A stretch of 64,000 bases of DNA. It comes from Escherichia coli. Lineage in GTDB: Bacteria > Pseudomonadota > Gammaproteobacteria > Enterobacterales > Enterobacteriaceae. Each line of letters starts with the position of its first letter. Position 1 is the first letter of the stretch. Location of the stretch: the NCBI RefSeq assembly GCF_009931435.1, contig NZ_CP043414.1. One strand, written 5' to 3'. Under the pieces are notes generated by a model, which had not been told where the DNA came from, searched no databases, and was given only the letters and a program-made list of their open reading frames with translations. Shown here piece after piece: positions 31,936 to 56,939 of this stretch. Made by a program: the position numbers and the translations under genes.

Positions 31936-32009
31936 GTATGTCGTACCTGTTTTTGGAATTCTTTCCGCAATAGTTTCATGCAGACTACCTGTAGTGAGGG
32001 AAGCTGCTA

Positions 32010-32100
32010 AGAACACTATATATAGGGGGTATGTTTGGGATTCACTGCAAGATAGTGTGAAAATGGCCCTCTTGCAAGTGCATAACTTTGTGGATAACTC
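32010..32100 (-). promoter_or_regulatory. nrdAB promoter region with a DnaA box and NrdR-box-like motifs
   Basis: Perfect TTATCCACA on the nrd strand at 32089-32097; ACACTATATATAG (32013-32025) and GATAGTGTGA (32051-32060) resemble NrdR boxes. Confidence 0.5.
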
Positions 32101-32624
32101 AGGAAGGAAAAAGTGGCTTCCGCGCACCTTAGGTCAGACAAGGTATCCGGGAAAGTCAATGGGAAGAGAAAAATTTGTTAAAAATAACTGTTCGGCGATT
32201 TCTTGAACGGCAGAATAGTATGGGTAAATTGATATAGATGGTTTATTAATCTTGTCGCTAATGATTGTCAAAATTGATCTAAGCACGAATCATCACATAA
32301 TCTGATGTATCAGTTGTGGTCAATATATAAGCGAATGTAAGCGATTGTTGAGTCGGAAATGGTTGTTTTCTATTCGGTTATTGTTAAATACCAAGCCAAT
32401 TTGTTACTTTTGCATATATTATAAGAATATTATTTATTACTTTAATTCAGTTTACATATAACCGATTTACCTTAAGGTTATTAATTTGAATTATGACACA
32501 CTGATATTATTCATCAAATAATAACAAAATAGTCATTGCACCGGGTTGTACAATTTACAAAAGAAATATACCCCATAGCGCATAATGCGATTAAATACGC
32601 CGTCTTATAGAAAATGATGGTTAG

Positions 32625-35600
32625 ATGAATATGCGGATTATCTTTCTACGCAAGGAGTATTTATCTTTACTCCCGTCAATGATTGCATCTCTTTTCTCTG
32701 TTAACAGTGTTGCGGAGGTTTTGGATTCATGCCAGGGATATGATATCAAAGCGAGTTGTCAGGCCAGCAGGCAAAGCCTTTCAGGCATTACGCAGGACTG
32801 GAGCATCGCCAATGGGCAATGGGTGATTTTTTCGGGTATGGCCAATAATGCTAGCGGTGGCGCCGTATTTTTGCAACAAGGAGCGGAGTTTTCTCTATCG
32901 CCAGAAAATGAAACTGGAATGACTCTGTTTGCCAATAATACTGTCTCAGGAGAATATAATAATGGCGGGGCAATATTTGCTAAAGAAAACTCAACGCTGA
33001 ATCTTACTGATGTTATTTTTTCCGGTAACGTCGCAGGCGGCTATGGTGGCGCAATCTATTCTTCTGGTACTAATGATACTGGTGCCGTCGATTTACGTGT
33101 CACTAACACCATGTTTATCAATAACATCGCTAATGATGGCAAAGGTGGCGCAATTTATACCATCAATAATGATGTCTATTTAAGTGATGATGTTTTTAAT
33201 AATAACCAGGCATATACATCAACAAGTTACAGTGATGGCGATGGTGGTGCAATCGATGTCACCGATAATAATAGCGATATCACGCATCCGTCAGGTTTCA
33301 CAATAATAAATAACACCGCATTTACAAATAACACTGCCGAAGGTTATGGCGGGGCAATTTATACCAATAGCGTGACGGCTCCCTATCTTATTGATATTTC
33401 TGTTGATGACAGCTACAGCCAGAACGGCGGTGTGTTAATCGATGAGAACAATTGCGCAGCAGGCTATGGGGATGGTCCTTCCACTGCGGCGGGCGGCTTT
33501 ATGTATCTCGGCTTAAGTGAAGTTACCTTTGATATTGCTGACGGAAAAACGCTGGTTATCGGCAATACAGAGAATGATGGAGCTGTTGACTCTATTGCTG
33601 GTACCGGGTTGATCACCAAAACAGGTTCCGGCGATCTGGTACTTAATGCAGATAACAATGACTTTACTGGTGAGATGCAGATTGAAAACGGTGAAGTTAC
33701 CCTGGGTCGCAGCAACTCCCTGATGAATGTCGGAGATAATCATTGCCAGGACGATCCGCAAGACTGCTACGGTCTGACGATAGGGAGTATTGATAAGTAC
33801 CAGAATCAGGCAGAGCTAAATGTTGGCTCCACCCAACAAACCTTTGTGCACGCATTGACGGGCTTTCAGAATGGCACTTTAAATATCGATGCTGGTGGCA
33901 ATGTTACTGTTAATCAAGGCAGTTTTGCTGGCACCATCGAAGGTGCTGGTCAGCTCACCATTGCGCAAAACGGCAGCTACGTGCTGGCAGGGGCGCAGTC
34001 GATGGCGCTAACTGGCGATATAGTCGTTGATGATGGCGCGGTGCTTACGCTAGAAGGCGACGCGGCAGATCTCGCCGCTCTCCAGGACGAGCCGCAGTCG
34101 ATCGTGTTAAACGGCGGTGTGCTCGATCTCTCTGATTTCTCCACCTGGCAGAGCGGCACATCATACAACGATGGCCTTGAAGTCAGCGGCAGCAGCGGAA
34201 CGGTTATCGGCAGTCAGGATGTGGTAGATCTTGCAGGCGGAAACGATATGCATATCGGCGGCGACGGGAAAGATGGCGTCTACGTGGTGGTCGATGCGGG
34301 TGATGGGCAGGTCAGCCTGGCAAATGACAATCAATACCTCGGCACAACGCAAATTGCTTCCGGTACGCTGGTGGTGAGTGACAACTCGCAGCTTGGAGAT
34401 ACCCACTATAACCGCCAGGTTATCTTTACCGATAATCAACAAGAAAGCGTGATGGAGATTACTGCCAATGTCGATACTCGCTCTACAACGGTTGAGCATG
34501 GGCGTGATATTGAAATGCGCGCCGACGGTGAAGTGGCAGTTGATGCGGGGGTAGACACGCAGTGGGGCGCACTGATGGCTGACAGCAGCGGGCAGCATCA
34601 GGATGAGGGTAGCACATTGACTAAAACGGGTGCTGGCACCCTGGAGCTGACCGCCAGCGGTACTACGCAGTCTGCGGTACGTGTTGAAGAAGGTACCCTG
34701 AAAGGCGATGTTGCGGATATTTTTCCTTATGCTTCGTCGCTGTGGATTGGTGACGGAGCAACGTTCGAGACTGGCGCAGATCAGGATATCCAGTCTATTG
34801 ATGCTACTTCCAGCGGCACTATCGACATCAGTGATGGCACCGTTTTGCGCCTGACGAGTCAGGATACTTCCGCCGCACTGGATGCCTCGCTGTTTAACGG
34901 CGACGGTACGTTGGTGAATGCCACCGATGGCGTGACGTTGACAGGCGAGCTTAATACTAACCTGGAAACTGACAGCCTGACCTATCTTTCCGATGTGACG
35001 GTTAATGGTGATCTAACCAATATGTCCGGTACAGTCAGTCTGCAAAATGGCGTCGCTGGCGATACGCTCACGGTAAACGGTGATTACACCGGCGGCGGTA
35101 CGTTGTTTCTCGACAGCGAATTAAACGGCGATGACTCGGTAAGCGACCAACTGGTGTTGAACGGCAATACCTCGGGTAACACGACCGTGGTGGTTAACCC
35201 CATTACCGGCACTGGTGAACCGACTTCTACAGGTATTAAAGTGGTTGATTTCACTGCTGATCCCACGCAATTTCAAAACAATGCGCTGTTTAGTCTTGCG
35301 GGCAGCGGCTACGTTAATATGGGAGCGTATGACTACACGCTGGTGGAAGATAACAACGACTGGTATCTGCGATCGCAAGAAGTCACTCCGACGCCGCCGC
35401 CCGATCCGGACCCGACTCCAGATCCTGATCCCACGCCGGATCCTGATCCAACACCCGACCCGGCTCCAGCCCCTACGCCTGCCTACCAGCCGGTGCTGAA
35501 CGCCAAAGTTGGTGGCTATCTCAATAACCTACGTGCGGCAAATCAGGCATTTGTGATGGAGCGACGCGATCACGCTGGTGGCGATGGTCAGACGCTGAAT

Positions 35601-36389
35601 TTACGTGTTATCGGCGGAGATTATCATTACACGGCGGCAGGGCAGTTGGCCCAGCATGAAGACACTTCTACGGTACAGCTTAGCGGCAACTTGTTAAGCG
35701 GATACTGGGGCGATGATGGCCAGTGGATGCTAGGGGCCGTGGGCGGCTACAGCGATAACCAGGGTGACAGTCGATCAAACATGACCGGAACTCGCGCTGA
35801 TAACCAGAACTACGGTTATGCCGTTGGGCTGACCTCAAGCTGGTTTCAGCACCGTAGCCAAAAACAGGGGGCCTGGCTGGATAGCTGGCTGCAATACGCG
35901 TGGTTTAACAATGATGTTTCCGAACATGAAGATGGCGTGGATCATTACCACTCATCGGGGATTATCGCCTCGCTGGAAGCGGGGTATCAGTGGTTACCGG
36001 GGCGTGGTGTGGTGATTGAACCACAGGTGCAGGTGATTTATCAGGGTGTGCAGCAGGATGATTTTACCGCTGCTAACCATGCGCGGGTATCGCAATCGCA
36101 GGGCGATGATCTTCAGACGCGGTTGGGGATACACAGCGAATGGCGTACCGCTGTGCATATCACGCCAACCCTGGATCTGAATTATTATCACGATCCCCAT
36201 TCGGCGGGGATTGAAGAAGATGGCAGCGCTATCAGTGACGATGCGGTGAAGCAACGGGGTGAAATAAAAGTGGGGATAACAGGCAATATAAGTCAGCGAG
36301 TTTCCCTGCGTGGCAGCGTGGTGTGGCAGAAAGGAGACGATGGTTTTGTCCAAACGGCTGGGTTTCTATCGATGAGGGTGAAATGGTAA
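32625..36389 (+). CDS. yfaL: AIDA-I-type autotransporter adhesin (about 1250 aa)
   Basis: Signal-peptide-like N-terminus, long beta-helical passenger with repeated GGAIY motifs, proline-rich linker, and a C-terminal beta-barrel translocator ending in aromatic residues. The true start may be the ATG at 32631 (MRIIFL). Confidence 0.85.
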   Translation: MNMRIIFLRKEYLSLLPSMIASLFSVNSVAEVLDSCQGYDIKASCQASRQSLSGITQDWSIANGQWVIFSGMANNASGGAVFLQQGAEFSLSPENETGMTLFANNTVSGEYNNGGAIFAKENSTLNLTDVIFSGNVAGGYGGAIYSSGTNDTGAVDLRVTNTMFINNIANDGKGGAIYTINNDVYLSDDVFNNNQAYTSTSYSDGDGGAIDVTDNNSDITHPSGFTIINNTAFTNNTAEGYGGAIYTNSVTAPYLIDISVDDSYSQNGGVLIDENNCAAGYGDGPSTAAGGFMYLGLSEVTFDIADGKTLVIGNTENDGAVDSIAGTGLITKTGSGDLVLNADNNDFTGEMQIENGEVTLGRSNSLMNVGDNHCQDDPQDCYGLTIGSIDKYQNQAELNVGSTQQTFVHALTGFQNGTLNIDAGGNVTVNQGSFAGTIEGAGQLTIAQNGSYVLAGAQSMALTGDIVVDDGAVLTLEGDAADLAALQDEPQSIVLNGGVLDLSDFSTWQSGTSYNDGLEVSGSSGTVIGSQDVVDLAGGNDMHIGGDGKDGVYVVVDAGDGQVSLANDNQYLGTTQIASGTLVVSDNSQLGDTHYNRQVIFTDNQQESVMEITANVDTRSTTVEHGRDIEMRADGEVAVDAGVDTQWGALMADSSGQHQDEGSTLTKTGAGTLELTASGTTQSAVRVEEGTLKGDVADIFPYASSLWIGDGATFETGADQDIQSIDATSSGTIDISDGTVLRLTSQDTSAALDASLFNGDGTLVNATDGVTLTGELNTNLETDSLTYLSDVTVNGDLTNMSGTVSLQNGVAGDTLTVNGDYTGGGTLFLDSELNGDDSVSDQLVLNGNTSGNTTVVVNPITGTGEPTSTGIKVVDFTADPTQFQNNALFSLAGSGYVNMGAYDYTLVEDNNDWYLRSQEVTPTPPPDPDPTPDPDPTPDPDPTPDPAPAPTPAYQPVLNAKVGGYLNNLRAANQAFVMERRDHAGGDGQTLNLRVIGGDYHYTAAGQLAQHEDTSTVQLSGNLLSGYWGDDGQWMLGAVGGYSDNQGDSRSNMTGTRADNQNYGYAVGLTSSWFQHRSQKQGAWLDSWLQYAWFNNDVSEHEDGVDHYHSSGIIASLEAGYQWLPGRGVVIEPQVQVIYQGVQQDDFTAANHARVSQSQGDDLQTRLGIHSEWRTAVHITPTLDLNYYHDPHSAGIEEDGSAISDDAVKQRGEIKVGITGNISQRVSLRGSVVWQKGDDGFVQTAGFLSMRVKW

Positions 36390-36397
36390 TCGCTGTC

Positions 36398-36515
36398 TGA
36401 CCGGCACTATTGCCGGATGCGGCGTAAACGCCTTATCTGGCCTACGGGAGCATTTGTAGGCCTGATAAGACGCGGCAAGCGTCGCATCAGGCATTGGCAC
36501 GGTTGCCGGATGAAT
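36398..36515. repeat. BIME / REP cluster between yfaL and ubiG
   Basis: TGCCGGATGCGGCGTAAACGCCTTATCTGGCCTAC and GTAGGCCTGATAAGACGCGGCAAGCGTCGCATCAGGCA motifs. Confidence 0.7.
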
Positions 36516-36528
36516 CCAAACAACAACC

Positions 36529-37251
36529 TCACTTATTCTGCGTGTGCAGCATATAGTTCACATCTACGCCGGGACCGAGCTTAAAAGTGTTAGTAATCGG
36601 GTTGTAATGCAGTCCGATCATATGCCGTTCTTTTAGACTGGTCTGATCCACCCAGCCCAGCAATTCTGCCGGTTTAATAAACTTCTTCACATCATGCGTA
36701 CCTTTAGGCACCATGCGTAAAATATATTCCGCACCAACCACCGCCATCAGCCACGACTTGCCGTTGCGGTTAAGCGTCGAGAAAAAGACATCGCCGCCCG
36801 GTTTTACCAGTTGCGCACAGGCTCTGACCACTGACTGCGGATCGGGAACGTGCTCCAGCATCTCCATGCAGGTCACCACATCATACTGCCCGGCATGTTT
36901 TGCGGCGTGCTCTTCCACGGTTTCCTGCACGTAATTCACCTGAATGCCACTTTCCAGTGCGTGCAGCTTTGCCACCTGCAATGGCTCAAAGCCCATATCC
37001 AGACCGGTCACCGTCGCGCCTTCGCGCGCCATACTCTCGGCCAGAATGCCGCCGCCACAACCGACATCGAGTACCTTTTTGCCAAATAAACCGCCAGCAC
37101 GCTCGGCAATATAGCCCAGACGCAGCGGGTTAATGCGGTGCAGCGGTTTGAACTCACCTTCCAGATCCCACCAGCGGGAGGCGACGGCTTCAAATTTAGC
37201 GATCTCTTCGTGGTCTACGTTAGGGGTTACCGGCGATTTTTCGGCATTCAT
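36529..37251 (-). CDS. ubiG: ubiquinone biosynthesis O-methyltransferase (240 aa)
   Basis: Start at [20 protein letters not shown]; SAM-binding motif ([13 protein letters not shown]). Confidence 0.95.
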
Positions 37252-37397
37252 TGGCACTTCTACTCCGTAATTGGCAAGACAAACGAGTATATCAGGCATT
37301 GGATGTGAATAAAGCGTATAGGTTTACCTCAATCAGCGCGGCTGTGTTATAATTTGCGACCTTTGAATCCGGGATACAGTAGAGGGATAGCGGTTAG

Positions 37398-40025
37398 ATG
37401 AGCGACCTTGCGAGAGAAATTACACCGGTCAACATTGAGGAAGAGCTGAAGAGCTCCTATCTGGATTATGCGATGTCGGTCATTGTTGGCCGTGCGCTGC
37501 CGGATGTCCGAGATGGCCTGAAGCCGGTACACCGTCGCGTACTTTACGCCATGAACGTACTAGGCAATGACTGGAACAAAGCCTATAAAAAATCTGCCCG
37601 TGTCGTTGGTGACGTAATCGGTAAATACCATCCCCATGGTGACTCGGCGGTTTATGACACGATCGTCCGTATGGCGCAGCCATTCTCGCTGCGTTACATG
37701 CTGGTAGACGGTCAGGGTAACTTCGGTTCCATCGACGGCGACTCTGCGGCGGCAATGCGTTATACGGAAATCCGTCTGGCGAAAATTGCCCATGAACTGA
37801 TGGCCGATCTCGAAAAAGAGACGGTCGATTTCGTTGATAACTATGACGGCACGGAAAAAATTCCGGACGTCATGCCGACCAAAATTCCTAACCTGCTGGT
37901 GAACGGTTCTTCCGGTATCGCCGTAGGTATGGCAACCAACATCCCGCCACACAACCTGACGGAAGTCATCAACGGTTGTCTGGCGTATATCGATGATGAA
38001 GACATCAGCATTGAAGGGCTGATGGAACACATCCCGGGGCCGGACTTCCCGACGGCGGCAATCATTAACGGTCGTCGCGGTATCGAAGAAGCTTACCGTA
38101 CCGGTCGCGGCAAGGTATATATCCGCGCCCGTGCGGAAGTGGAAGTTGACGCCAAAACCGGGCGTGAAACCATTATCGTCCACGAAATTCCGTATCAGGT
38201 GAACAAAGCGCGCCTGATCGAAAAAATTGCGGAACTGGTAAAAGAAAAACGCGTGGAAGGCATCAGCGCGCTGCGTGACGAATCTGACAAAGACGGTATG
38301 CGCATCGTGATTGAAGTCAAACGCGATGCGGTCGGTGAAGTGGTGCTCAACAACCTCTACTCCCAGACCCAGTTGCAGGTTTCTTTCGGTATTAACATGG
38401 TGGCATTGCACCATGGTCAGCCGAAGATCATGAACCTGAAAGACATCATCGCTGCGTTTGTTCGTCACCGCCGTGAAGTGGTGACCCGTCGTACTATTTT
38501 CGAGCTGCGTAAAGCTCGCGACCGTGCTCATATCCTTGAAGCATTAGCCGTGGCGCTGGCAAACATCGATCCGATTATCGAACTGATCCGTCATGCGCCG
38601 ACGCCTGCAGAAGCGAAAACGGCGCTGGTTGCTAATCCGTGGCAGCTGGGCAACGTTGCCGCGATGCTCGAACGTGCGGGCGATGATGCTGCGCGTCCGG
38701 AATGGCTGGAGCCAGAGTTCGGCGTGCGTGACGGTCTGTACTACCTGACCGAACAGCAAGCTCAGGCGATTCTGGATCTGCGTCTGCAGAAACTGACCGG
38801 CCTTGAACACGAAAAACTGCTCGATGAATACAAAGAGCTGCTGGATCAGATCGCGGAACTGTTGCGTATTCTTGGTAGCGCCGATCGTCTGATGGAAGTG
38901 ATCCGTGAAGAGCTGGAGCTGGTTCGTGAACAGTTCGGTGACAAACGTCGTACTGAAATCACCGCCAACAGCGCAGACATCAACCTGGAAGATTTGATTA
39001 CTCAGGAAGATGTGGTAGTGACGCTCTCTCACCAGGGCTACGTGAAGTACCAGCCGCTTTCTGAATACGAAGCGCAGCGTCGTGGCGGGAAAGGTAAATC
39101 TGCCGCACGTATTAAAGAAGAAGACTTTATCGACCGACTGCTGGTGGCGAACACCCACGACCATATTCTGTGCTTCTCCAGCCGTGGTCGCGTCTATTCG
39201 ATGAAAGTTTACCAGTTGCCGGAAGCCACTCGTGGTGCGCGTGGTCGTCCGATCGTCAACCTGCTGCCGCTGGAACAGGACGAACGTATCACCGCGATCT
39301 TGCCGGTGACTGAGTTTGAAGAAGGTGTGAAAGTCTTCATGGCGACCGCTAACGGGACCGTGAAGAAAACTGTCCTCACCGAGTTCAATCGTCTTCGTAC
39401 CGCCGGTAAAGTGGCGATCAAACTGGTTGACGGCGATGAGCTGATCGGCGTTGACCTGACCAGCGGTGAAGACGAAGTAATGCTGTTCTCCGCCGAAGGT
39501 AAAGTGGTGCGCTTTAAAGAGTCTTCTGTCCGTGCGATGGGCTGCAACACCACCGGTGTTCGCGGTATTCGCTTAGGTGAAGGCGATAAAGTCGTCTCTC
39601 TGATCGTGCCTCGTGGCGATGGTGCAATCCTCACCGCAACGCAAAATGGTTACGGTAAACGTACTGCGGTAGCGGAATACCCGACTAAGTCGCGTGCGAC
39701 GAAAGGGGTTATCTCCATCAAGGTTACCGAACGTAACGGTTTAGTGGTTGGCGCGGTGCAGGTAGATGACTGCGACCAGATCATGATGATCACCGATGCC
39801 GGTACGCTGGTACGTACTCGCGTTTCTGAAATCAGCATCGTGGGCCGTAACACCCAGGGCGTGATCCTTATCCGTACTGCGGAAGATGAAAACGTGGTGG
39901 GTCTGCAACGTGTTGCTGAACCGGTTGACGAGGAAGATCTGGATACCATCGACGGCAGTGCTGCGGAAGGGGACGATGAAATCGCTCCGGAAGTGGACGT
40001 TGACGACGAGCCAGAAGAAGAATAA
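37398..40025 (+). CDS. gyrA: DNA gyrase subunit A (875 aa)
   Basis: 875-aa ORF with the active-site Tyr region and an acidic C-terminal tail; the quinolone-resistance region reads [11 protein letters not shown] (Ser83, Asp87). Confidence 0.97.
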
Positions 40026-40043
40026 TTTCATCGCCTCATGCCA

Positions 40044-40068
40044 AAAGGGAGTTATCTCCCTTTTTTGA
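40044..40068 (+). terminator. Intrinsic terminator after gyrA
   Basis: AAGGGAG-TTAT-CTCCCTT hairpin followed by TTTTTT. Confidence 0.6.
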
Positions 40069-40171
40069 ATTGAAGTCCAGGCTGCAAAGTCTGGGCTTTT
40101 GTCGTATTAGGGCGCGGTAAAGTTTTGCTGTACCCATAAAAAATGGCTGGCTTTACACAAGGAATGTGGCA

Positions 40172-47018
<6,847 letters not shown>

Positions 47019-48668
47019 GTGAACTGGCGCAGAATCGTCTGGCTATTAGCGTTGGTTACTCTGCCAACGCTGGCGGAGGAAACGCCGTTACAACTGGCGC
47101 TGCGGGGCGCGCAACACGATCAACTGTATCAGCTGTCGTCATCAGGCGTGACCAAAGTCTCGGCATTACCTGACACGCTCACCACGCCATTAGGGAGTTT
47201 GTGGAAACTGTATGTTTACGCCTGGCTGGAGGATACCCATCAACCAGAGCAGCCCTACCAGTGTCGCGGAAACTCCCCGGAAGAGGTTTATTGTTGTCAG
47301 GCTGGGGAGAGCATAACGCGCGATACCGCGCTGGTACGCTCCTGTGGACTCTATTTTGCGCCGCAACGGTTGCATATTGGTGCAGATGTTTGGGGGCAAT
47401 ACTGGCAACAGCGTCAGGCACCTGCGTGGTTAGCGTCTCTTCCGACGCTGAAGCCAGAAACCTCGGTAACGGTTAAATCGCTGCTTGATTCATTAGCGAC
47501 GTTACCCGCGCAAAACAAAGCTCAGGAAATCTTACTGGATGTGGTGCTGGACGAGGCGAAAATCGGTGTCGCATCCATGCTCGGTAGTCGGGTAAGGGTG
47601 AAAACCTGGAGCTGGTTTGCCGATGATGAGCAGGAAATCCGGCAGGGTGGTTTTGCCGGCTGGTTAACCGATGGTACACCGCTGTGGGTTACTGGCAGTG
47701 GCACCAGCAAAACGGTACTGACCCGTTATGCGACGGTGCTTAATCGGGTATTGCCAGTGCCGACGCAAGTTGCCAGTGGGCAATGTGTAGAGGTGGAGCT
47801 GTTTGCCCGTTATCCGCTGAAGAAAATCACGGCGGAAAAGAGTACGACAGCAGTAAAACCCGGCGTACTTAATGGGCGCTATCGTGTGACGTTTGCCAAT
47901 GGTAACCACATTACGTTTGTCAGCCACGGTGAGACGACCTTACTGACAGAAAAGGGCAAACTGAAATTGCAGTCGCATCTTGATCGTGAAGAGTACGTTG
48001 CCAGAGTACTGGATCGCGAGGCGAAAAGTACGCCCCCTGAGGCAGCGAAAGCTATGACCGTGGCGATTCGCACTTTCTTACAGCAAAACGCCAATCGGGA
48101 AGGCGATTGCCTGACCATCCCCGACAGCAGCGCCATGCAGCGTGTTTCTGCTTCGCCAGCCACCACGGGCGCGCGGACGATGACCGCCTGGACGCAGGAT
48201 CTCATTTACGCTGGCGATCCGGTTCATTATCACGGCAGTCGCGCTACCGAAGGGACACTCTCCTGGCGGCAAGCCACCGCCCAGGCGGGACAGGGAGAGC
48301 GTTACGACCAGATACTCACGTTTGCTTATCCCGACAATAGCCTTAGCCGCTGGGGAGCGCCACGCTCAACCTGCCAGTTATTACCTAAAGCGAAGGCCTG
48401 GCTGGCGAAAAAAATGCCGCAGTGGCGGGGTATGTTACAAGGCGAGACGGGGTACAACGAACCAGACGTGTTTGCGGTCTGCCGTTTAGTCTCAGGTTTC
48501 CCCTATACCGATCGGCAGCAGAAACGGCTGTTTATTCGTAACTTCTTTACGCTTCAGGATCGGCTTGATTTAACCCATGAGTATCTGCACCTGGCCTTTG
48601 ATGGTTATCCCACCGGGCTTGATGAGAACTATATCGAAACGCTGACCCGACAATTATTAATGGACTAA
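47019..48668 (+). CDS. yfaQ: uncharacterised conserved secreted protein (549 aa)
   Basis: GTG start immediately after the yfaS stop (TAAGTG), implying translational coupling; signal peptide WLLALVTLPTLA. Confidence 0.85.
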   Translation: MNWRRIVWLLALVTLPTLAEETPLQLALRGAQHDQLYQLSSSGVTKVSALPDTLTTPLGSLWKLYVYAWLEDTHQPEQPYQCRGNSPEEVYCCQAGESITRDTALVRSCGLYFAPQRLHIGADVWGQYWQQRQAPAWLASLPTLKPETSVTVKSLLDSLATLPAQNKAQEILLDVVLDEAKIGVASMLGSRVRVKTWSWFADDEQEIRQGGFAGWLTDGTPLWVTGSGTSKTVLTRYATVLNRVLPVPTQVASGQCVEVELFARYPLKKITAEKSTTAVKPGVLNGRYRVTFANGNHITFVSHGETTLLTEKGKLKLQSHLDREEYVARVLDREAKSTPPEAAKAMTVAIRTFLQQNANREGDCLTIPDSSAMQRVSASPATTGARTMTAWTQDLIYAGDPVHYHGSRATEGTLSWRQATAQAGQGERYDQILTFAYPDNSLSRWGAPRSTCQLLPKAKAWLAKKMPQWRGMLQGETGYNEPDVFAVCRLVSGFPYTDRQQKRLFIRNFFTLQDRLDLTHEYLHLAFDGYPTGLDENYIETLTRQLLMD

Positions 48669-48672
48669 TGCT

Positions 48673-49449
48673 ATGCGAAAGATTTTTTTTCCGTTGTTAC
48701 TGGTGGCGCTTTCGCCTGTCGCTCACAGTGAAGGTGTACAGGAAGTCGAGATTGATGCACCGCTCTCTGGCTGGCATCCTGCGGATGGTGAAGATGCCAG
48801 CTTTTCACAATCGATCAATTACCCCGCGTCGTCCGTCAACATGGCAGATGATCAAAATATCTCAGCGCAGATCCGCGGCAAAATAAAGAATTATGCGGCG
48901 GCGGGTAAAGTTCAGCAGGGCCGGTTGGTGGTCAACGGTGCCAGTATGCCGCAGAGAATTGAATCCGATGGTTCATTTGCACGCCCTTATATTTTCACTG
49001 AAGGCAGCAACAGCGTGCAGGTCATCAGCCCAGATGGGCGAAGTCGACAAAAAATGCAGTTTTACTCAACGCCGGGGGCTGGAGTGATTCGCGCGCGTTT
49101 ACGGCTGGTTCTCTCGTGGGATACGGACAATACCGACCTCGATCTTCATGTTGTCACGCCGGATGGTGAACACGCCTGGTACGGTAACACGGTGCTGAAA
49201 AACAGTGGTGCACTGGATATGGATGTCACGACGGGGTACGGACCGGAGATTTTCGCCATGCCAGCGCCAGTTCACGGGCGCTATCAGGTATATATCAACT
49301 ACTATGGCGGACGCAGTGAAACGGAATTGACGACCGCCCAACTGACGCTGATCACCGATGAAGGATCGGTTAATGAGAAACAGGAAACATTTATTGTACC
49401 GATGCGTAATGCTGGCGAACTGACGCTGGTGAAAAGTTTTGACTGGTGA
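48673..49449 (+). CDS. yfaP: uncharacterised conserved secreted protein (258 aa)
   Basis: Starts 4 nt after the yfaQ stop; signal peptide MRKIFFPLLLVALSPVAHS. Confidence 0.85.
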   Translation: MRKIFFPLLLVALSPVAHSEGVQEVEIDAPLSGWHPADGEDASFSQSINYPASSVNMADDQNISAQIRGKIKNYAAAGKVQQGRLVVNGASMPQRIESDGSFARPYIFTEGSNSVQVISPDGRSRQKMQFYSTPGAGVIRARLRLVLSWDTDNTDLDLHVVTPDGEHAWYGNTVLKNSGALDMDVTTGYGPEIFAMPAPVHGRYQVYINYYGGRSETELTTAQLTLITDEGSVNEKQETFIVPMRNAGELTLVKSFDW

Positions 49450-49482
49450 TTACTGAGGTTATCTTTACTGTCAATGTTCAAG

Positions 49483-49517
49483 AAAACGCCCGATGACTTT
49501 CGCTATCGGGCGTTTTT
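49483..49517. terminator. Bidirectional intrinsic terminator between convergent yfaP and atoB
   Basis: AAAACGCCCGAT-N11-ATCGGGCGTTTTT: a 10-bp perfect stem flanked by A and T runs. Confidence 0.65.
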
Positions 49518-49522
49518 ACATG

Positions 49523-50707
49523 TTAATTCAATCGTTCAATCACCATCGCAATTCCTTGACCGCCGCCAATGCACAACGTTGCCAGACCCAGCGTTTTATC
49601 GCGTGCCTGCATTGCATGTAATAGTGTGACCAGAATACGCGCACCGCTGGCGCCGATAGGATGCCCCAGCGCGATGGCCCCGCCGTTGACATTCACTTTC
49701 TCAGGATCAAAGCCCAGTGTTTTCCCAACGGCAAGGAACTGCGCGGCAAATGCTTCATTGGCTTCGATAAGATCAATGTCTGCCAGCTGCAGCCCCGCCA
49801 GTTGTAACGCTTTTTGCGTGGCAGGTACTGGCCCCATACCCATCAATGCGGGGGGCACTCCACCGCTGGCATAACTTTTAATGCGAGCCAAGGGGGTAAG
49901 GCCTGCTGCCAGCGCCGTAGATTCTTCCATAATCACCAGAGCGGCAGCACCGTCGTTAATACCTGACGCGTTCCCGGCGGTGACAGTACCTGCTTTATCG
50001 AAGGCCGGACGCAATGCAGCCAGAGCTTCTGTAGTAGAATCTGGTTTCGGGAATTCGTCTTGACTGAAGACGAGGGTTTTCTTCCGGGTGACAACATTTA
50101 CCGGGACGATTTCGGCTGTAAAAGCACCGGACTCAATTGCGGCAGCCGCTTTACGCTGTGAATGTAGCGCCAGTTCATCCTGCATTTCGCGGGTAATCCC
50201 GTACTCCTTAGCCACGTTTTCGGCGGTAATTCCCATATGATAACCATGGGTGGCGCACATCAGGCCATCGCGCAGGATTACGTCATAAACCTGTCCGTCT
50301 CCCAGACGATAACCAGAGCGCGCTTTTGCATCGAGTAAGTAGGGCGCTAAACTCATATTTTCCATACCCCCCGCCACAATGCTCTGCGCCTGACCTGCCT
50401 GAATTGCCTGGGCGGCAAGCGCCACGCTTTTCAGACCCGAACCACACACTTTATTGACCGTGAATCCGCACACCGTTTCGGCCAGTCCGCTTTTTAACAA
50501 TGCCTGACGCGCCGGATTTTGCCCCAGCCCGGCTTGCAACACGTTACCCATAATCACTTCATCGATATGTTGTGAATCGATTTTTGCGCGTTCAATAGCG
50601 GCCTGAATTACTGTTGCTCCCAGATCGATGGCGCTGGTGGAGGCGAGTGAACCATTAAAACTACCGATGGCAGTACGTACCGCACTGACGATGACACAAT
50701 TTTTCAT
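49523..50707 (-). CDS. atoB: acetyl-CoA acetyltransferase / thiolase II (394 aa)
   Basis: 394-aa thiolase ORF with conserved Cys and Gly-rich motifs. Confidence 0.95.
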
Positions 50708-50737
50708 TTTATATTCCTTCTGTCTGTAAAGTTGCCG

Positions 50738-52060
50738 TCAGAACAGCGTTAAACCAATGACGAAAATGACGCCGGAGAAAAGCAGAGCAGTGATGCAATA
50801 GCCCATGATGTCGCGGACACCGAGTCCGGCGATTGCCAGTGCTGGCAGCGCCCAGAACGGTTGTGCCATGTTCATCCATTGCTCGCCGTAGGCGATCGCC
50901 ATTACCGATTTACCGAGATCGGCTCCCAGCGCCTGGGCTGCAGGTATCACGAAAGGTCCCTGAATAACCCAGTGACCGCCGCCAGACGGAACGGCGAAGT
51001 TAATCAGTGCAGAACTAAAGAAGGTCATTACCGGGAAGGTGTCTTTGTTCGCAACATTGATGAAGAATTCAGTAATGAACCCACCCAGACCGGAGTGCTC
51101 CATCATCAGTTGGATCCCGGCGTAGAAGGGGAATTGCACCAGAATACCGGCGGTACTGCGCGCAGCCGCGCTGATAGCACGCATATAAGCCATTGGCGTT
51201 TTATGTAGCAGCAGACCCGCAATCATAAACATCAGGTTGACGGTATTGATGGTGATGTTGAAGCCATGTTCGCTGAAGTACATCGCCAGGTAAGCGATAC
51301 CGAGTGCGCCGATGATCAACGTCAGGATGCGACTTTCCTCCAGTCGCTCGGATGGTGGGGCATCTTTCGGTAGCTGCTTCTGAAAATCAGCCTCTTCCAT
51401 GAGTAGTTTCGGATCGATACTCACCACGTCAGACGGTTTTGGCATCATCATGCGGGTAATAAATGGCATCACCACAATCAATGCCACAGTGATGAAAATG
51501 TTAAAACCACTGAACAGAGTATCGCCCACCGGGATAAGCCCGGCGATATGCTCAACCGGATTGCCCGGTGTGGCAGCCAACAGAGGCATTGAACCAGAGA
51601 AACCGCCACCCCAGGTAAGAAAACCAATGTAGGCGCAGGCAATGAGCAACGGATAATCAGAACCGGGTACTCGCCGGGCGACTTCACGGGCGAACATTGC
51701 TCCGACAACCAGACCAAATCCCCAGTTGATGACACAAGCGACTGAACCGAAGAAAGTGACCAGCATGACGCCCTGTACGGGCGTCTTTGCGGCGGAAGCG
51801 GCAGTACGCAGCAAGCTTTTCACCGGAGCAGAGCTGGCAAGGGCATGACCGGTAACGATGATAAGCGCCATCTGCATACCGAACGCCAGCAAGTTCCAGA
51901 AACCGTCCCCCCACATTTTCACCATGCTGATCGGCGTTTGTGGTGTTAACCAAAGCGCGATCACGAACGTTAGCAATGTCAGCAACATGGCAAAGATCAG
52001 TGGATCGGGAAGCCACCGGCTGACAAAACGCGTCATAAAACGCGAGATGCGACCAATCAT
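50738..52060 (-). CDS. atoE: short-chain fatty acid transporter (440 aa)
   Basis: 440-aa polytopic membrane ORF within the ato operon. Confidence 0.9.
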   Translation of the reverse strand: MIGRISRFMTRFVSRWLPDPLIFAMLLTLLTFVIALWLTPQTPISMVKMWGDGFWNLLAFGMQMALIIVTGHALASSAPVKSLLRTAASAAKTPVQGVMLVTFFGSVACVINWGFGLVVGAMFAREVARRVPGSDYPLLIACAYIGFLTWGGGFSGSMPLLAATPGNPVEHIAGLIPVGDTLFSGFNIFITVALIVVMPFITRMMMPKPSDVVSIDPKLLMEEADFQKQLPKDAPPSERLEESRILTLIIGALGIAYLAMYFSEHGFNITINTVNLMFMIAGLLLHKTPMAYMRAISAAARSTAGILVQFPFYAGIQLMMEHSGLGGFITEFFINVANKDTFPVMTFFSSALINFAVPSGGGHWVIQGPFVIPAAQALGADLGKSVMAIAYGEQWMNMAQPFWALPALAIAGLGVRDIMGYCITALLFSGVIFVIGLTLF

Positions 52061-52707
52061 AAATCACCCCGCTGCGTATTCAGATCGGCGGCGACTTCAA
52101 ACTGAGCTTCGGTTTTGGCACGCACGGTGGCTAAATCACACCCGTCGGCAATTTCGGTGAGCCACATTTTGCCGTCAATGAAACGAAAGACTGCCAGTTC
52201 AGTGACCAGCATATGCACCGCGTGTTGCGCAGTGAGCGGCATGGTGCAGCGGCGCAAAATTTTTGCTGAACCATCTTTGGCGCAATGTTCCATGGCGATG
52301 ATCACTTTGCGCGACCCGGTCACCAGATCCATCGCGCCACCCATACCGGGCACCATTTTTCCAGGCACTACCCAGTTCGCGAGGTTGGCTTCTTCGTCTA
52401 CCTGCAAACCACCGAGTACGCAGGCATCAATATGACCACCACGAATCAGCGCAAACGACATTGCGCTGTCGAACATCGCTGCGCCGGGTAAAATGCCGCA
52501 TGGTTGCCCGCCAGCGTTCACCAGATCTGGATGCGCTGTAGTGACTGGGCCTAAACCGAGGAAGCCATTTTCCGATTGCAGAGTGATATGAATATCCTCC
52601 GGTAAATAATTGGCGACCATTGTGGGTAAACCGATCCCTAAGTTAACGATGTCACCATCACGAAGCTCTTGCGCCACACGGCGCGCAATACGTTGTTTCG
52701 CATCCAT
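52057..52707 (-). CDS. atoA: acetate CoA-transferase beta subunit (216 aa)
   Basis: 216-aa ORF; 3-oxoacid CoA-transferase subunit B family. Confidence 0.95.
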   Translation of the reverse strand: MDAKQRIARRVAQELRDGDIVNLGIGLPTMVANYLPEDIHITLQSENGFLGLGPVTTAHPDLVNAGGQPCGILPGAAMFDSAMSFALIRGGHIDACVLGGLQVDEEANLANWVVPGKMVPGMGGAMDLVTGSRKVIIAMEHCAKDGSAKILRRCTMPLTAQHAVHMLVTELAVFRFIDGKMWLTEIADGCDLATVRAKTEAQFEVAADLNTQRGDL

Positions 52708-53369
52708 TATTTGCTCTCCTGTGAAACGATGATGTGGTCGATAACGGCACCAGGGGTGACAATATGGTCAGGTTGCAGTTCGCCGGTTTCGACCAGTTCA
52801 TCTGGCTCCACCAGCGTGATATCAGCCGCAAGGGCAATCAGGGGGTTAAAGTTGCGGGCGCTAAGTTGGTAGGTCAGGTTGCCAAGTGTGTCGCAACGAT
52901 GGGCGCGAATGAGCGCCAGGTCGGCGCGCAGTGGACGTTCAAGCAGCCAGGTTTTACCGTCGAGTGTCAGCGTCTGTTTGCCTTCCTCTACGACGGTGCC
53001 GACACCAGTTGGCGTGAGAAAACCACCAAGTCCAGCTCCACCACAGCGAATTTGCTCAATCAATGTACCTTGCGGTACGAGAACGACCTCCATTTCGCCA
53101 GAAATCATGCGCCGTCCGGTTTCCGGGTTGGTGCCGATATGTGAAGCAATTACTTTGCGGACTCGACCATTGACGATGAGCGGACCGATGCCGGTATCAA
53201 CAAACGCGGTATCATTGGCTATCAATGTCAGGTCGCGAACGCCAGATTCCAGTAATGCTTCCACCAGGCGGGATGGAGTGCCAATTCCCATAAATCCGCC
53301 CACCATGATGGTCATGCCGTCACGAAAGAAGCCGGAGGCGTCTTGTAATGTCATCAATTTTGTTTTCAT
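52707..53369 (-). CDS. atoD: acetate CoA-transferase alpha subunit (220 aa)
   Basis: 220-aa ORF; CoA-transferase subunit A family. Confidence 0.95.
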
Positions 53370-53414
53370 TATTTATCCCTCTTGCATACACCGTTGTGGG
53401 TACAGTCAGGGAAT

Positions 53415-53430
53415 AGCAAGGGGAGTGCCA
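53415..53430 (-). promoter_or_regulatory. sigma54 (-24/-12) promoter of atoDAEB
   Basis: On the ato strand TGGCAC-TCCCC-TTGCT matches the sigma54 consensus TGGCAC-N5-TTGCW, about 45 nt upstream of the atoD start. Confidence 0.55.
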
Positions 53431-53513
53431 GAATGAAAATGTTTGATATTGTTTTTTAACTTATTGAATAGTAAAGAATAAATAAGGTGGGGATTAAGAG
53501 GTTGAATGAACGG

Positions 53514-53552
53514 CTATGCAGAAATTTGCGCACTGTGCAAATTTCTGCATAG
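53514..53552. promoter_or_regulatory. Perfect 39-bp palindrome, probable AtoC enhancer binding site
   Basis: CTATGCAGAAATTTGCGCA-C-TGTGCAAATTTCTGCATAG, perfectly symmetric, about 100 nt upstream of the sigma54 promoter and just downstream of the atoC stop. Confidence 0.6.
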
Positions 53553-53564
53553 CAAGTTTTGGCG

Positions 53565-54950
53565 TTATACATCCGCCGGATCGATACCGTATTCCTGGAG
53601 TTTATACATCAATGCACGGCGACTGATGCCCAGCATTAAAGCAGTGCGGGTTCGGTTTCCTTCTTGTTGTTCCAGCACTTCCATAATGATGCGTTTTTCG
53701 ACGCGTTTAATTTCCTCTTTTAAATTACGCTCACCGACAGGGGCTGTTTTTGCTTCACCAGCACTACAGACTGGCTGACGAATCTGCGGCGGAAGATCCT
53801 CAGAAAAAATGATCGGGCCTGAATTCATCACGACGGCGCGTTCAATAACGTTGGAAAGCTCTCGAATATTTCCCGGCCATGACCATGCGGTAAGCAGTGA
53901 CATTGCCATCGGATCGATGTCGATAATATCGCGCTGATTCTCACTACTGAATTTTTGCAAAAAGTGATTAGCTAACAGGGAAATATCTTCCCGGCGATCG
54001 CGCAGAGGCGGCAGTATTAAATGAATAACGTTAAGGCGATAAAAGAGATCTTCACGGAAGGTGCCTTCTTTCACCATTGCCTGCAAGTCGCGGTTGGTGG
54101 CAGCAATGATGCGGATATCAACTTTTATGGTCTGATGACCGCCAATCCGTTCAAATTCCCGTTCCTGCAGAATGCGTAGTAATTTGGCTTGCAGTACCAG
54201 CGGCATTTCACCAATTTCGTCAAGGAGCAGAGTACCTTCGTTGGCACGTTCAAATAATCCCTGACGCAGGGTTTGTGCACCAGTAAATGCGCCTTTTTCA
54301 TGACCAAACAGTTCACTTTCGAGCAACGATTCCGGCAGCGCCGCGCAGTTGACTTTAATAAACGGCCCCTTGGCCCGCCGCGAATTGTAGTGAATCGCTC
54401 TGGCAATCAACTCTTTCCCGGTGCCGCTTTCACCGCTAATCAAGACGCTGGCCTGAGAAAGGGCAATTTTGGCGGTGTCTTTGCAGATGTCCATCATTGC
54501 CGGGCTGTTAGTGAGAATGTGCCCCCATTGCCAACTGGTGCTTAGTGCCTGGTGCAGATGACGGATCTCTTTTTTCATTGACTGGAGTTGTAAAGCGCGC
54601 TGAACGATTAAATTCAACTCATCGAGATCAAACGGTTTGATGACATAGTCAAAGGCTCCGCAGCGTAGTGCTTCGACGGCGGTTTCCACTTCAGCATAGG
54701 CCGTCATCAGAATAACGGGTGTCCGTGTCTCATGGCTGCGCATCTCCTTGAGTGCCTTGATGCCGTCCATCTCTGGCATGCGGATATCCATCAACACCAC
54801 GTCAGGGTGAATATCGGCAAACAGGTGTAATGCTGTGCGCCCGTTGTTCGCACAATGTGTTTCGAATCCTTGTAGTGCAAAAGCGGTGCTCAGCATACGG
54901 CGAACATTATCTTCATCATCCACAATAAGGATGCGATTAATAGCAGTCAT
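53565..54950 (-). CDS. atoC: sigma54-dependent response regulator AtoC (461 aa)
   Basis: Receiver domain, AAA+ sigma54-interaction domain (GESGTGKE) and C-terminal HTH. Confidence 0.95.
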   Translation of the reverse strand: MTAINRILIVDDEDNVRRMLSTAFALQGFETHCANNGRTALHLFADIHPDVVLMDIRMPEMDGIKALKEMRSHETRTPVILMTAYAEVETAVEALRCGAFDYVIKPFDLDELNLIVQRALQLQSMKKEIRHLHQALSTSWQWGHILTNSPAMMDICKDTAKIALSQASVLISGESGTGKELIARAIHYNSRRAKGPFIKVNCAALPESLLESELFGHEKGAFTGAQTLRQGLFERANEGTLLLDEIGEMPLVLQAKLLRILQEREFERIGGHQTIKVDIRIIAATNRDLQAMVKEGTFREDLFYRLNVIHLILPPLRDRREDISLLANHFLQKFSSENQRDIIDIDPMAMSLLTAWSWPGNIRELSNVIERAVVMNSGPIIFSEDLPPQIRQPVCSAGEAKTAPVGERNLKEEIKRVEKRIIMEVLEQQEGNRTRTALMLGISRRALMYKLQEYGIDPADV

Positions 54951-56773
54951 ACAGTCTGATTTCCCTGCGGGTTGATCGGTAAAATAAGCGTGAAGGTTGC
55001 GCCGTAGCCCGGCAAACTGGCGACGCGAATATCACCCTGATGGGCATTAATGATGCGTTGACTTAACGCCAGACCAAGCCCGGTTCCTGAGGCTTTGGTA
55101 GTGAAAAAGGGATCGAAGATCTTTTTTTGCAGCGAGAGATCAATGCCACTGCCGTTGTCCTCTATCGAAATGGCCTGTTGTGAGTCGCTATACTGCCAGG
55201 TTCGAATGCGAATTTTCCCTCGTGCACTGATAGCCTGGACGGCATTGATCAGGATATTCAGTAGTACCTGTTTGAGCAGTTCACGATCGGCGTTAATCGG
55301 GCTTAATTCATTATCCAGTTCGCTTATGAAGTCGACTCGCGCTTGTACGCCGGCGGTTTGTACCAGTACCAGAGTTTCTTCAACCAATGCATTGAGGCTG
55401 ACTTGTTGCCATTGACTGTGGCGTGGGCGTGAAAATTCGAGCAATTGCTGAATAACTTTGTTAATTGAATCGATTTCTTTGAGTACTACGGACAGATATT
55501 CCTGATGTATTGGGTCACTGGTTTGTTGGCGCAAGATCTGTACATAACCACGAATAGCCGTTAACGGATTACGTACTTCATGCGCCACGCCAGCCATCAG
55601 CTCACCCAGTGTGGCGAGGCGTTCAGCTTGCGCCATGCGGCGCTGGGTTTCTTTGCGGGCAGTTAAATCAGAGAAAATCACCAAAGCACCTATCATTTCA
55701 CCATGCGTATTATGAATACGACTGGTAGTGACACTGAGTTCAATGGTGCGCTCACGGCCTGGAAAACTGATCTCCAGCGCCACATGTTCGGTACCATGTT
55801 CCAGCGTATCCAGTACTGGACTGTAGAACGGAGTATTGTCGAACAACATGGAGTAAGGCTGCCCTACCAGTTCATGACGTTGATAGCCAGTGATGACTTC
55901 TGCTGCCGGGTTCATGGTGGTTACATCACCCTGGCGGTCAATGGCAATGACGCCATCGGCAGCGTTTTCAATAATCAGATCGTTAAGTGTTCGCGTTTCA
56001 CGCAGTGCCTGGGCGAGGTTGTTGACACTCTGACTAATTTGCCCCATTTCACCGGGCAATTGTGGTAATCGAGTGGGAATATTTTGCGCCAGAGTCGCGA
56101 GACCATCGGTGATGATATCTATATTGGCGCTCAGGCGACGGGAGAAAAGGACAATCAACAGCAGGCTTATCAGCAAACCGGCGGTGAGCACAATGATAAT
56201 CCTCACATCCATTTTCCAGGCCTGGCGGCGAATATCTTCGGTTAATTCATTGGCCCAGATATAACCGAGGATTTCACCATTACGCTCAATGGGGATCATT
56301 GAATTCAAAATATCGCCGCGCACCTGCCTGCCTGAATAAATCAAAGGAGTATTTGTACGCATGACTTCGCGACCAGGGTGATCTGCGGCAATAGTAACGC
56401 CCACATTATTCTGATACAGCGCTGAAGGCGCGTAAGTGATTATCGCATCCAGTGTTTTGTTGTAATAACCAGCACCTATGCCAGGAAAGGCGTGAGTGAT
56501 ATTTTCAGTAATGGGAGCAAGTTCTGCATTCAGTGCGTGGATTCGCTCCTCACGTGGTAAGTCGTTGTAGAGATCGTAGCGATCGCCTAGCGCCTGATTA
56601 AGCAGGTTGACCACGGCAGAAAGTTTTTTCTCTTTTTCAGATAAGACTGCTGAACGTCCTTCCGTTTCTACGATATAACCAATAGTAAGCGTTGGGACAA
56701 TGACCATCAGGATTGCCATCAGGATCATTTGATTGCGTAAGCGGCGTGGATAAATCCACTTCATATAATGCAT
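54947..56773 (-). CDS. atoS: sensor histidine kinase AtoS (608 aa)
   Basis: Start at MHYMKWIYPRR; TM helices, PAS and HisKA/HATPase domains; 4-nt overlap with atoC. Confidence 0.9.
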   Translation of the reverse strand: MHYMKWIYPRRLRNQMILMAILMVIVPTLTIGYIVETEGRSAVLSEKEKKLSAVVNLLNQALGDRYDLYNDLPREERIHALNAELAPITENITHAFPGIGAGYYNKTLDAIITYAPSALYQNNVGVTIAADHPGREVMRTNTPLIYSGRQVRGDILNSMIPIERNGEILGYIWANELTEDIRRQAWKMDVRIIIVLTAGLLISLLLIVLFSRRLSANIDIITDGLATLAQNIPTRLPQLPGEMGQISQSVNNLAQALRETRTLNDLIIENAADGVIAIDRQGDVTTMNPAAEVITGYQRHELVGQPYSMLFDNTPFYSPVLDTLEHGTEHVALEISFPGRERTIELSVTTSRIHNTHGEMIGALVIFSDLTARKETQRRMAQAERLATLGELMAGVAHEVRNPLTAIRGYVQILRQQTSDPIHQEYLSVVLKEIDSINKVIQQLLEFSRPRHSQWQQVSLNALVEETLVLVQTAGVQARVDFISELDNELSPINADRELLKQVLLNILINAVQAISARGKIRIRTWQYSDSQQAISIEDNGSGIDLSLQKKIFDPFFTTKASGTGLGLALSQRIINAHQGDIRVASLPGYGATFTLILPINPQGNQTV

Positions 56774-56939
56774 GCTGAATCCCACTAGTCTTGTCCGGTA
56801 TATGACGATTATCAGAGGTTAAGGTGATGATTTCTCGGCGGTGTATCATATTCCAGAGAAGAGAGAACATTGCGGTAACACGCTTTTACCGCTACCTTAA
56901 CCACACTCCATCGGTCACCTGAGGCGGAGCTTCGCCCCT

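Follow-up and report, generated by a model that had tools for sequence, protein, structure and literature searches.

Between atoC and atoD, in the 64,000-nucleotide stretch of Escherichia coli DNA analyzed here (the window), a long inverted repeat lies upstream of a sequence resembling a sigma-54 promoter. This arrangement raises the question of whether the repeat is the site from which the enhancer-binding protein AtoC activates transcription of the atoDAEB operon, as an earlier note made from the sequence had proposed. The genes at this locus follow the order atoS, atoC, site, atoDAEB, all on the minus strand, and both their order and annotation match those of K-12 b2219-b2224. The atoC-atoD intergenic region spans 195 bp (53370-53564), which is also its length in K-12, and the features discussed below are collected in Table 1.

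Table 1. Genes and regulatory features of the ato locus, in positions of the window; binding sites are assigned by correspondence with K-12.
Feature	Position	Strand	Description
atoS	54947..56785	-	Sensor histidine kinase; NCBIfam NF008468, 989.2 bits (cut-off 646)
atoC	53565..54950	-	Sigma-54 enhancer-binding response regulator, 461 aa; NCBIfam equivalog NF008469, 1002.6 bits (cut-off 714)
AtoC upstream activating sequence	53513..53553	-	41-bp near-palindrome; 20-nt arms, 1-nt center at 53533, 19/20 pairs complementary
AtoC half-site 1 (promoter-distal)	53534..53553	-	GCTATGCAGAAATTTGCACA; contains the dyad unit TGCA-GAAATT-TGCA
AtoC half-site 2 (promoter-proximal)	53513..53532	+	GCTATGCAGAAATTTGCGCA; one base off the K-12 site GCTATGCAGAAAATTGCGCA
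IHF-like core	53457..53469	-	ATTCAATAAGTTA; matches WATCAANNNNTTR, a loose consensus, with one mismatch; 40 bp upstream of the -24 GG
Sigma-54 promoter	53415..53430	-	TGGCACTCCCCTTGCT; -24 TGGCAC, -12 TTGCT; exact TGGCAC-N5-TTGCW
atoD leader (predicted)	53370..53404	-	35 nt; from the C(-12) to ATG spacing and the distance of 35 in PMC4591121
atoDAEB operon	49523..53369	-	Target operon, acetoacetate and short-chain fatty-acid catabolism; NCBIfam matches
atoD	52707-53369	-	NF007394, 443.8 bits (cut-off 315); ATG at 53369
atoA	52057-52707	-	NCBIfam match
atoE	50738-52060	-	NCBIfam match
atoB	49523-50707	-	NCBIfam match

The product of atoC has the domain composition of a sigma-54 activator, with Response_reg, Sigma54_activat, AAA_lid_14, and HTH_8 domains identified by Pfam, the D55 context in the receiver, a Walker A motif (residue 173), and the GAFTGA motif (residue 220). 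A cognate bacterial enhancer-binding protein (bEBP), with both a sigma-54-interacting AAA+ domain (GAFTGA) and an HTH, is therefore encoded at the locus itself. Residues 396 and 400, neither of them in the HTH, are the only differences from K-12 AtoC, and the DNA-binding domains of the two proteins are identical. No solved structure of AtoC was found in a structural homology search, in which the closest match was the NtrC-family regulator 4l4u from Aquifex.

The earlier note described the repeat as a perfect 39-bp palindrome lying about 100 bp upstream of the -24/-12 element. The 39-mer CTATGCAGAAATTTGCGCACTGTGCAAATTTCTGCATAG is indeed found at 53514-53552, but it is not perfect: 18 of its 19 arm pairs are complementary around an unpaired center base, and position 17 (G53530) is mispaired with position 23 (T53536). 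The inverted repeat grows outward by one further pair, giving the 41-bp element listed in Table 1, which begins 11 nt past the atoC stop codon. The estimate of distance was a fair one, as the center of the palindrome is 104 bp from the first G of the -24 GG, or 82 bp when measured edge to edge. At a score of at least 19/20 complementary pairs, the palindrome is the single site in the 64-kb window; reading it with a 3-nt center instead gives 18/20, and nothing else in the window reaches 17/20. When the window was simulated 200 times with a first-order Markov model, the highest scores were 14-17 of 20. The symmetry of the element is thus far beyond what chance would produce.

Facing atoD, the -24/-12 element (53430-53415, minus strand) fits TGGCAC-N5-TTGCW without mismatch, as does no other sequence in the window, and its description in the earlier note as a clear element oriented toward atoD is borne out. 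Matches with one mismatch occur at chance level, with four found in the window against 4.1 expected. The element is identical in sequence to the K-12 sigma-54 ChIP-seq motif assigned to atoD, CTGGCACTCCCCTTGCT, for which the distance to atoD is given as 35 and earlier confirmation is noted (PMC4591121). An RpoN site identified by gSELEX also maps within the atoC>atoD spacer (PMC8743547). Transcription of atoD would be predicted to start at about 53404, which is 12 nt past the C of the -12 GC.

The enhancer and sigma-54 promoter of the K-12 atoDAEB operon have already been footprinted and mutagenized, and Matta et al. 2007 (J Bacteriol 189:6324) reportedly describe both this promoter and the AtoC binding site. 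Two K-12 AtoC sites upstream of atoD, positive for in vivo binding, are listed as GCTATGCAGAAATTTGCACA (-184 to -165) and GCTATGCAGAAAATTGCGCA (-163 to -144) relative to the atoD start (Pilalis et al. 2011, PMC3118216, Table 5), and the first of these was verified by both ChIP and EMSA (PMC3118216). Earlier work summarized in the same paper found that the 40-bp palindrome governs AtoC binding as well as acetoacetate inducibility, and that expression is sigma-54-dependent (PMC3118216). Comparison with the published sites, which the earlier note had suggested as a check, shows that half-site 1 of the window is identical to its K-12 counterpart, half-site 2 matches at 19 of 20 positions, and the offsets from the atoD ATG equal those of K-12, with 53553 lying at -184 from the ATG at 53369. 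The two regions also share the atoSC-atoDAEB locus, the intergenic length, the -24/-12 element, and the DNA-binding domain of AtoC. Half-site 2 reads AAATTT in the window, whereas it reads AAAATT in K-12, which makes the window allele more symmetric (19/20 versus 18/20). The feature is the already characterized atoDAEB control region, and the claim of an AtoC site activating a sigma-54 promoter is supported by the equivalog-level assignments of AtoC and AtoD, the published sites at the same offsets, and the sigma-54 ChIP-seq motif. AtoC binding, acetoacetate inducibility, and rpoN dependence would be expected of this allele as well, by transfer of the K-12 data through sequence identity.

Very probably, then, an AtoC enhancer at the near-palindrome and the sigma-54 promoter together control atoDAEB, by a mechanism that was established in K-12 and is transferred to this allele by near-identity. 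The proposed course of events follows the general scheme in which a bEBP bound at an upstream activating sequence (UAS) reaches its promoter through IHF-assisted looping (PMC7175178). AtoS would detect acetoacetate and phosphorylate AtoC, dimers of which would occupy the near-palindrome directly downstream of their own gene, and the phosphorylated protein would then form an AAA+ ring. Bending of the A/T-rich spacer by IHF would allow this ring to reach the RNA polymerase-sigma-54 holoenzyme waiting as a closed complex on TGGCAC-N5-TTGCT. ATP hydrolysis, coupled through the GAFTGA loop, would open the promoter, and transcription of atoDAEB would begin about 35 nt ahead of the atoD ATG. Judging from the sequence, two AtoC dimers would bind the same face of the DNA with 19-20 bp, or about two helical turns, between them, much as dimers do at NtrC-type enhancers.

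The NtrC enhancer of glnAp2 consists of two dyad sites for NtrC dimers upstream of a sigma-54 promoter, with the sites about three turns apart. The atoDAEB region resembles it in the family of the activator (receiver, AAA+, HTH_8), in having two dyad units with TGCAC-type boxes about 100-140 bp upstream of the -24/-12 element, and in activation by looping. However, the AtoC units are adjacent, at 19-20 bp from center to center, and jointly form one long palindrome; in addition, the atoDAEB region features an IHF-like site, and the inducer is acetoacetate, acting via AtoS. A layout in which the UAS, an IHF-type bend site, and the -24/-12 element fall within about 150 bp is known from IHF-assisted sigma-54 promoters (PMC7175178), with prp as an example (PMC2965739). 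The order of UAS, IHF-type site, and -24/-12 element at pspA (activated by PspF) and the Salmonella prpBCDE operon (activated by PrpR) would be shared by atoDAEB, where the IHF-type site is a predicted one; the activator and the signal differ. The gSELEX peak in the atoC>atoD spacer is given as 48% in the RpoN-alone table and as 77% in a table of a later section (PMC8743547). We take the later table to be the RpoN-plus-NtrC set and, if this is correct, NtrC could possibly cross-bind the TGCAC-type boxes of the AtoC site.

Comparison across species delimits the parts of the intergenic region that are held constant. A scan of species-representative genomes with AtoC recovered orthologous loci in a divergent Escherichia, five Citrobacter, and Edwardsiella ictaluri, as well as two distant loci in which AtoC is 57% identical. 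An alignment of 16 orthologous intergenic regions, drawn from Escherichia, Citrobacter, and Edwardsiella and including the window, K-12, and seven further E. coli alleles, reveals four conserved blocks: the palindrome, the ATTCAA-N4-TTA core, the CTGGCA(C/T)-N4-CTTGC element, and the leader up to the ATG. The other parts of the spacer diverge freely. The palindrome is conserved in all 16 regions, as are the GG of the -24 element and the GC of the -12 element, which are invariant. Spacing is likewise constrained, with 104-107 bp between the palindrome center and the GG across the aligned orthologues and exactly 47 nt from C(-12) to the ATG in 16/16 sequences. Edwardsiella carries 34 extra bases upstream of the palindrome and none between the palindrome and the promoter.

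The same blocks stand out when only the window and K-12 are compared. Differences number 1/41 in the palindrome, 1/13 in the IHF-like core, 0/16 in the -24/-12 element, and 2/45 from the -12 element to the ATG, against 20/69 (29%) in the rest of the spacer. The corresponding figure for four-fold degenerate sites of the six ato genes is 12.6%. The spacer (window 53431-53512, with the IHF-like core excluded), which shows no indels relative to K-12, has thus diverged more than twofold beyond the four-fold sites (Fisher p = 4e-4).

The IHF-like core is found by a relaxed pattern at a fixed place, 39-41 bp upstream of the GG, in all 16 aligned regions, with diverging spacer adjoining it. It reads ATTCAA-N4-(T/C)TA in 15 of the 16, the exception being Citrobacter R56 with AATTAA-N4-TTA. 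Exact matches to the IHF consensus are absent from the atoC-atoD intergenic region, and the two in the whole window are at chance level; the case for the one-mismatch core derives solely from its conservation. A role of IHF in the atoDAEB spacer is suggested by this conserved core and its position. Matta et al. 2007 reportedly found IHF to be required for atoDAEB; the literature collection searched yielded nothing usable on atoDAEB with IHF or footprinting.

The invariant columns of the palindrome are concentrated in four TGC(A) boxes, which start at palindrome positions 5, 15, 24, and 34. Given this clustering, each 20-bp arm looks like a full dyad for an AtoC dimer, YGCA-N6-TGCR, with boxes 10 bp apart, which is the size that would be expected for one HTH_8 dimer. 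If each arm is a full dimer site, the enhancer as a whole would hold two dimers 19-20 bp apart. Taken singly, YGCA-N6-TGCR is a common unit (0.14 per kb). The double unit, [YGCA-N6-TGCR]-N4-7-[YGCA-N6-TGCR], occurs in the 586 kb examined only immediately behind atoC, a count made in the very sequences from which the pattern was derived, so that the distant metagenome-assembled genomes (MAGs) alone lend it partly independent support. It is present in the window, K-12, every E. coli allele, the divergent Escherichia, four of the five Citrobacter, Edwardsiella, and a Nitrospiraceae MAG, while Citrobacter R56 has one degenerate box. In the Nitrospiraceae MAG, AtoS, AtoC, and AtoD score above the NCBIfam equivalog cut-offs and an AtoA homologue scores above that of the subfamily model. 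A Deltaproteobacteria MAG shows the same two-unit layout with one degenerate box, in a site that overlaps the atoC stop codon. Both distant MAGs feature a TGGCAT-N5-TTGCT promoter downstream, and none of these taxa, the two MAGs included, departs from the AtoC recognition helix LGISRRxLxYKLQEY. The cassette of a regulator gene, its own enhancer, and a sigma-54 promoter is much older than the enterobacterial locus. The two-dimer pattern, YGCA-N6-TGCR twice, also holds in such remote AtoSC cassettes, and could make searches for members of the AtoC regulon more precise.

Two further observations concern the distant cassettes. In both the Deltaproteobacteria MAG (L010, 4372-4412) and the Nitrospiraceae MAG (L009, 4376-4415), the presumed AtoC site begins within the atoC stop codon or a few bases past it. 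The first target gene in the Deltaproteobacteria MAG is an atoE-type transporter, not atoD.

An inverted repeat just past a stop codon could also act mainly or additionally as RNA, in the form of a stem-loop at the 3′ end of atoSC that terminates or protects the mRNA and limits read-through into atoDAEB. The sense-strand RNA would fold into a 17-bp hairpin with an MFE of -33.4 kcal/mol (z = -6.95 versus shuffles), and in three of the 20 arm pairs both bases are substituted among the taxa, with a covariation score above that of all 500 shuffles. However, two half-sites recognized by one protein would be just as likely to change in both arms, and related sequences without structure are known to exceed a shuffle control. 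Despite the stable stem, an intrinsic (Rho-independent) terminator was rejected, since no U-tract (T-run in the DNA) follows the stem and the terminator scan found none. Sense-strand pair 18 is an A.C mismatch conserved in 15 of the 16 sequences, and the eight other sampled E. coli alleles, K-12 included, have a second mismatch (18/20). Edwardsiella retains only 14/20 pairs yet has the TGCA boxes, and its element lies 45 nt from the atoC stop codon. A function in RNA is consequently unlikely. The milder version, in which the AtoC enhancer doubles as an RNA element whose 17-bp hairpin sets the 3′ end or stability of the atoSC mRNA and insulates atoDAEB from read-through, is held to be just as improbable; were it true, selection on both pairing and AtoC contacts would account for the both-arm substitutions in three lineages.

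It is scarcely credible that the palindrome arose by chance, is a REP/BIME-type dispersed repeat, or serves another regulator, with a sigma-54-like neighbor by coincidence. The frequency of single YGCA-N6-TGCR units and the sub-threshold, hairpin-shaped Rfam matches that any palindrome gives (mir-19, 23.7 bits versus 50) fit such a view, but a score of 19/20 was never approached in the simulations, the half-site is absent elsewhere in the window at up to three mismatches, and E. coli genomes match the intergenic query at a median of one place each. The element also has the sequence of AtoC sites verified by experiment, and its position and sequence are kept across three genera. The REP/BIME-like repeat was rejected on the same copy-number data, and a known RNA family was rejected as well, all Rfam matches being chance matches of this kind. 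The preferred reading therefore remains that of an AtoC enhancer paired with a sigma-54 promoter.

Apart from these elements, the atoD leader on the minus strand is strongly conserved from Escherichia to Edwardsiella, with GTACC and AGGGA.A.A.AATG invariant. This conservation exceeds what a Shine-Dalgarno sequence alone would require, and atoD is presumably among the listed targets of the sRNA Spot 42. On the opposite strand, a 90-aa ORF with an ATG start (53506-53778, plus strand) begins just upstream of the palindrome and runs antisense to the 3′ end of atoC. It is most likely spurious, being the opposite strand of a real gene.

The additions made here to what was known of the control region are a modest refinement, and comprise a rare and slightly more symmetric allele, a four-block footprint with fixed spacing, and the reading of the palindrome as two dimer sites. 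The case carries little weight as a discovery, and serves instead as a positive control, in that a reader with only the sequence found both elements and their logic correctly. The intergenic allele of the window is rare: among the 3923 E. coli genomes in which the region occurs, 3 reach at least 99% identity. Over the 195-bp intergenic region, identity to the window is 80-90% in most E. coli genomes, compared with 95-99% over the locus and flanking coding sequence. Parts of the window spacer resemble a divergent Escherichia locus (L002) and not K-12, for which recombination may be responsible.

Elsewhere in the window, positions 30000-50000 (gyrA, nrdA, yfaL, and yfaA-to-yfaS-type genes) are 90-95% identical to 5314 E. 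coli complete-genome records, the best reaching 98.3%, and the ato region (52700-55000) is missing from about 1500 of the 5426 genomes in the E. coli complete-genome collection. From the identity of this 20-kb stretch, and from the frequent absence of the ato region, the window derives from an Escherichia lineage a few percent removed from mainstream E. coli. In the genome closest to the window, NZ_CP169399.1, the 195-bp intergenic query has two places, and the places found in the whole collection outnumber the matching records by 22.

Other E. coli strains carry damaged versions of the locus. In CUVM53 (NZ_CP116976.1; L088, 1501-1700), a deletion runs from the promoter's -24 TGGCAC to another TGGCAC within atoD and joins the two. 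The -12 element, the leader, and the 5′ end of atoD are lost, atoD is annotated as a partial pseudogene, and the AtoC palindrome is kept. In Combat13F7 (L087), atoC is annotated as an N-terminally truncated remnant, and in ST130 (L084) it is annotated as frameshifted; the palindrome and promoter are intact in both. From these two strains, loss of the regulator with retention of the cis elements seems to recur.
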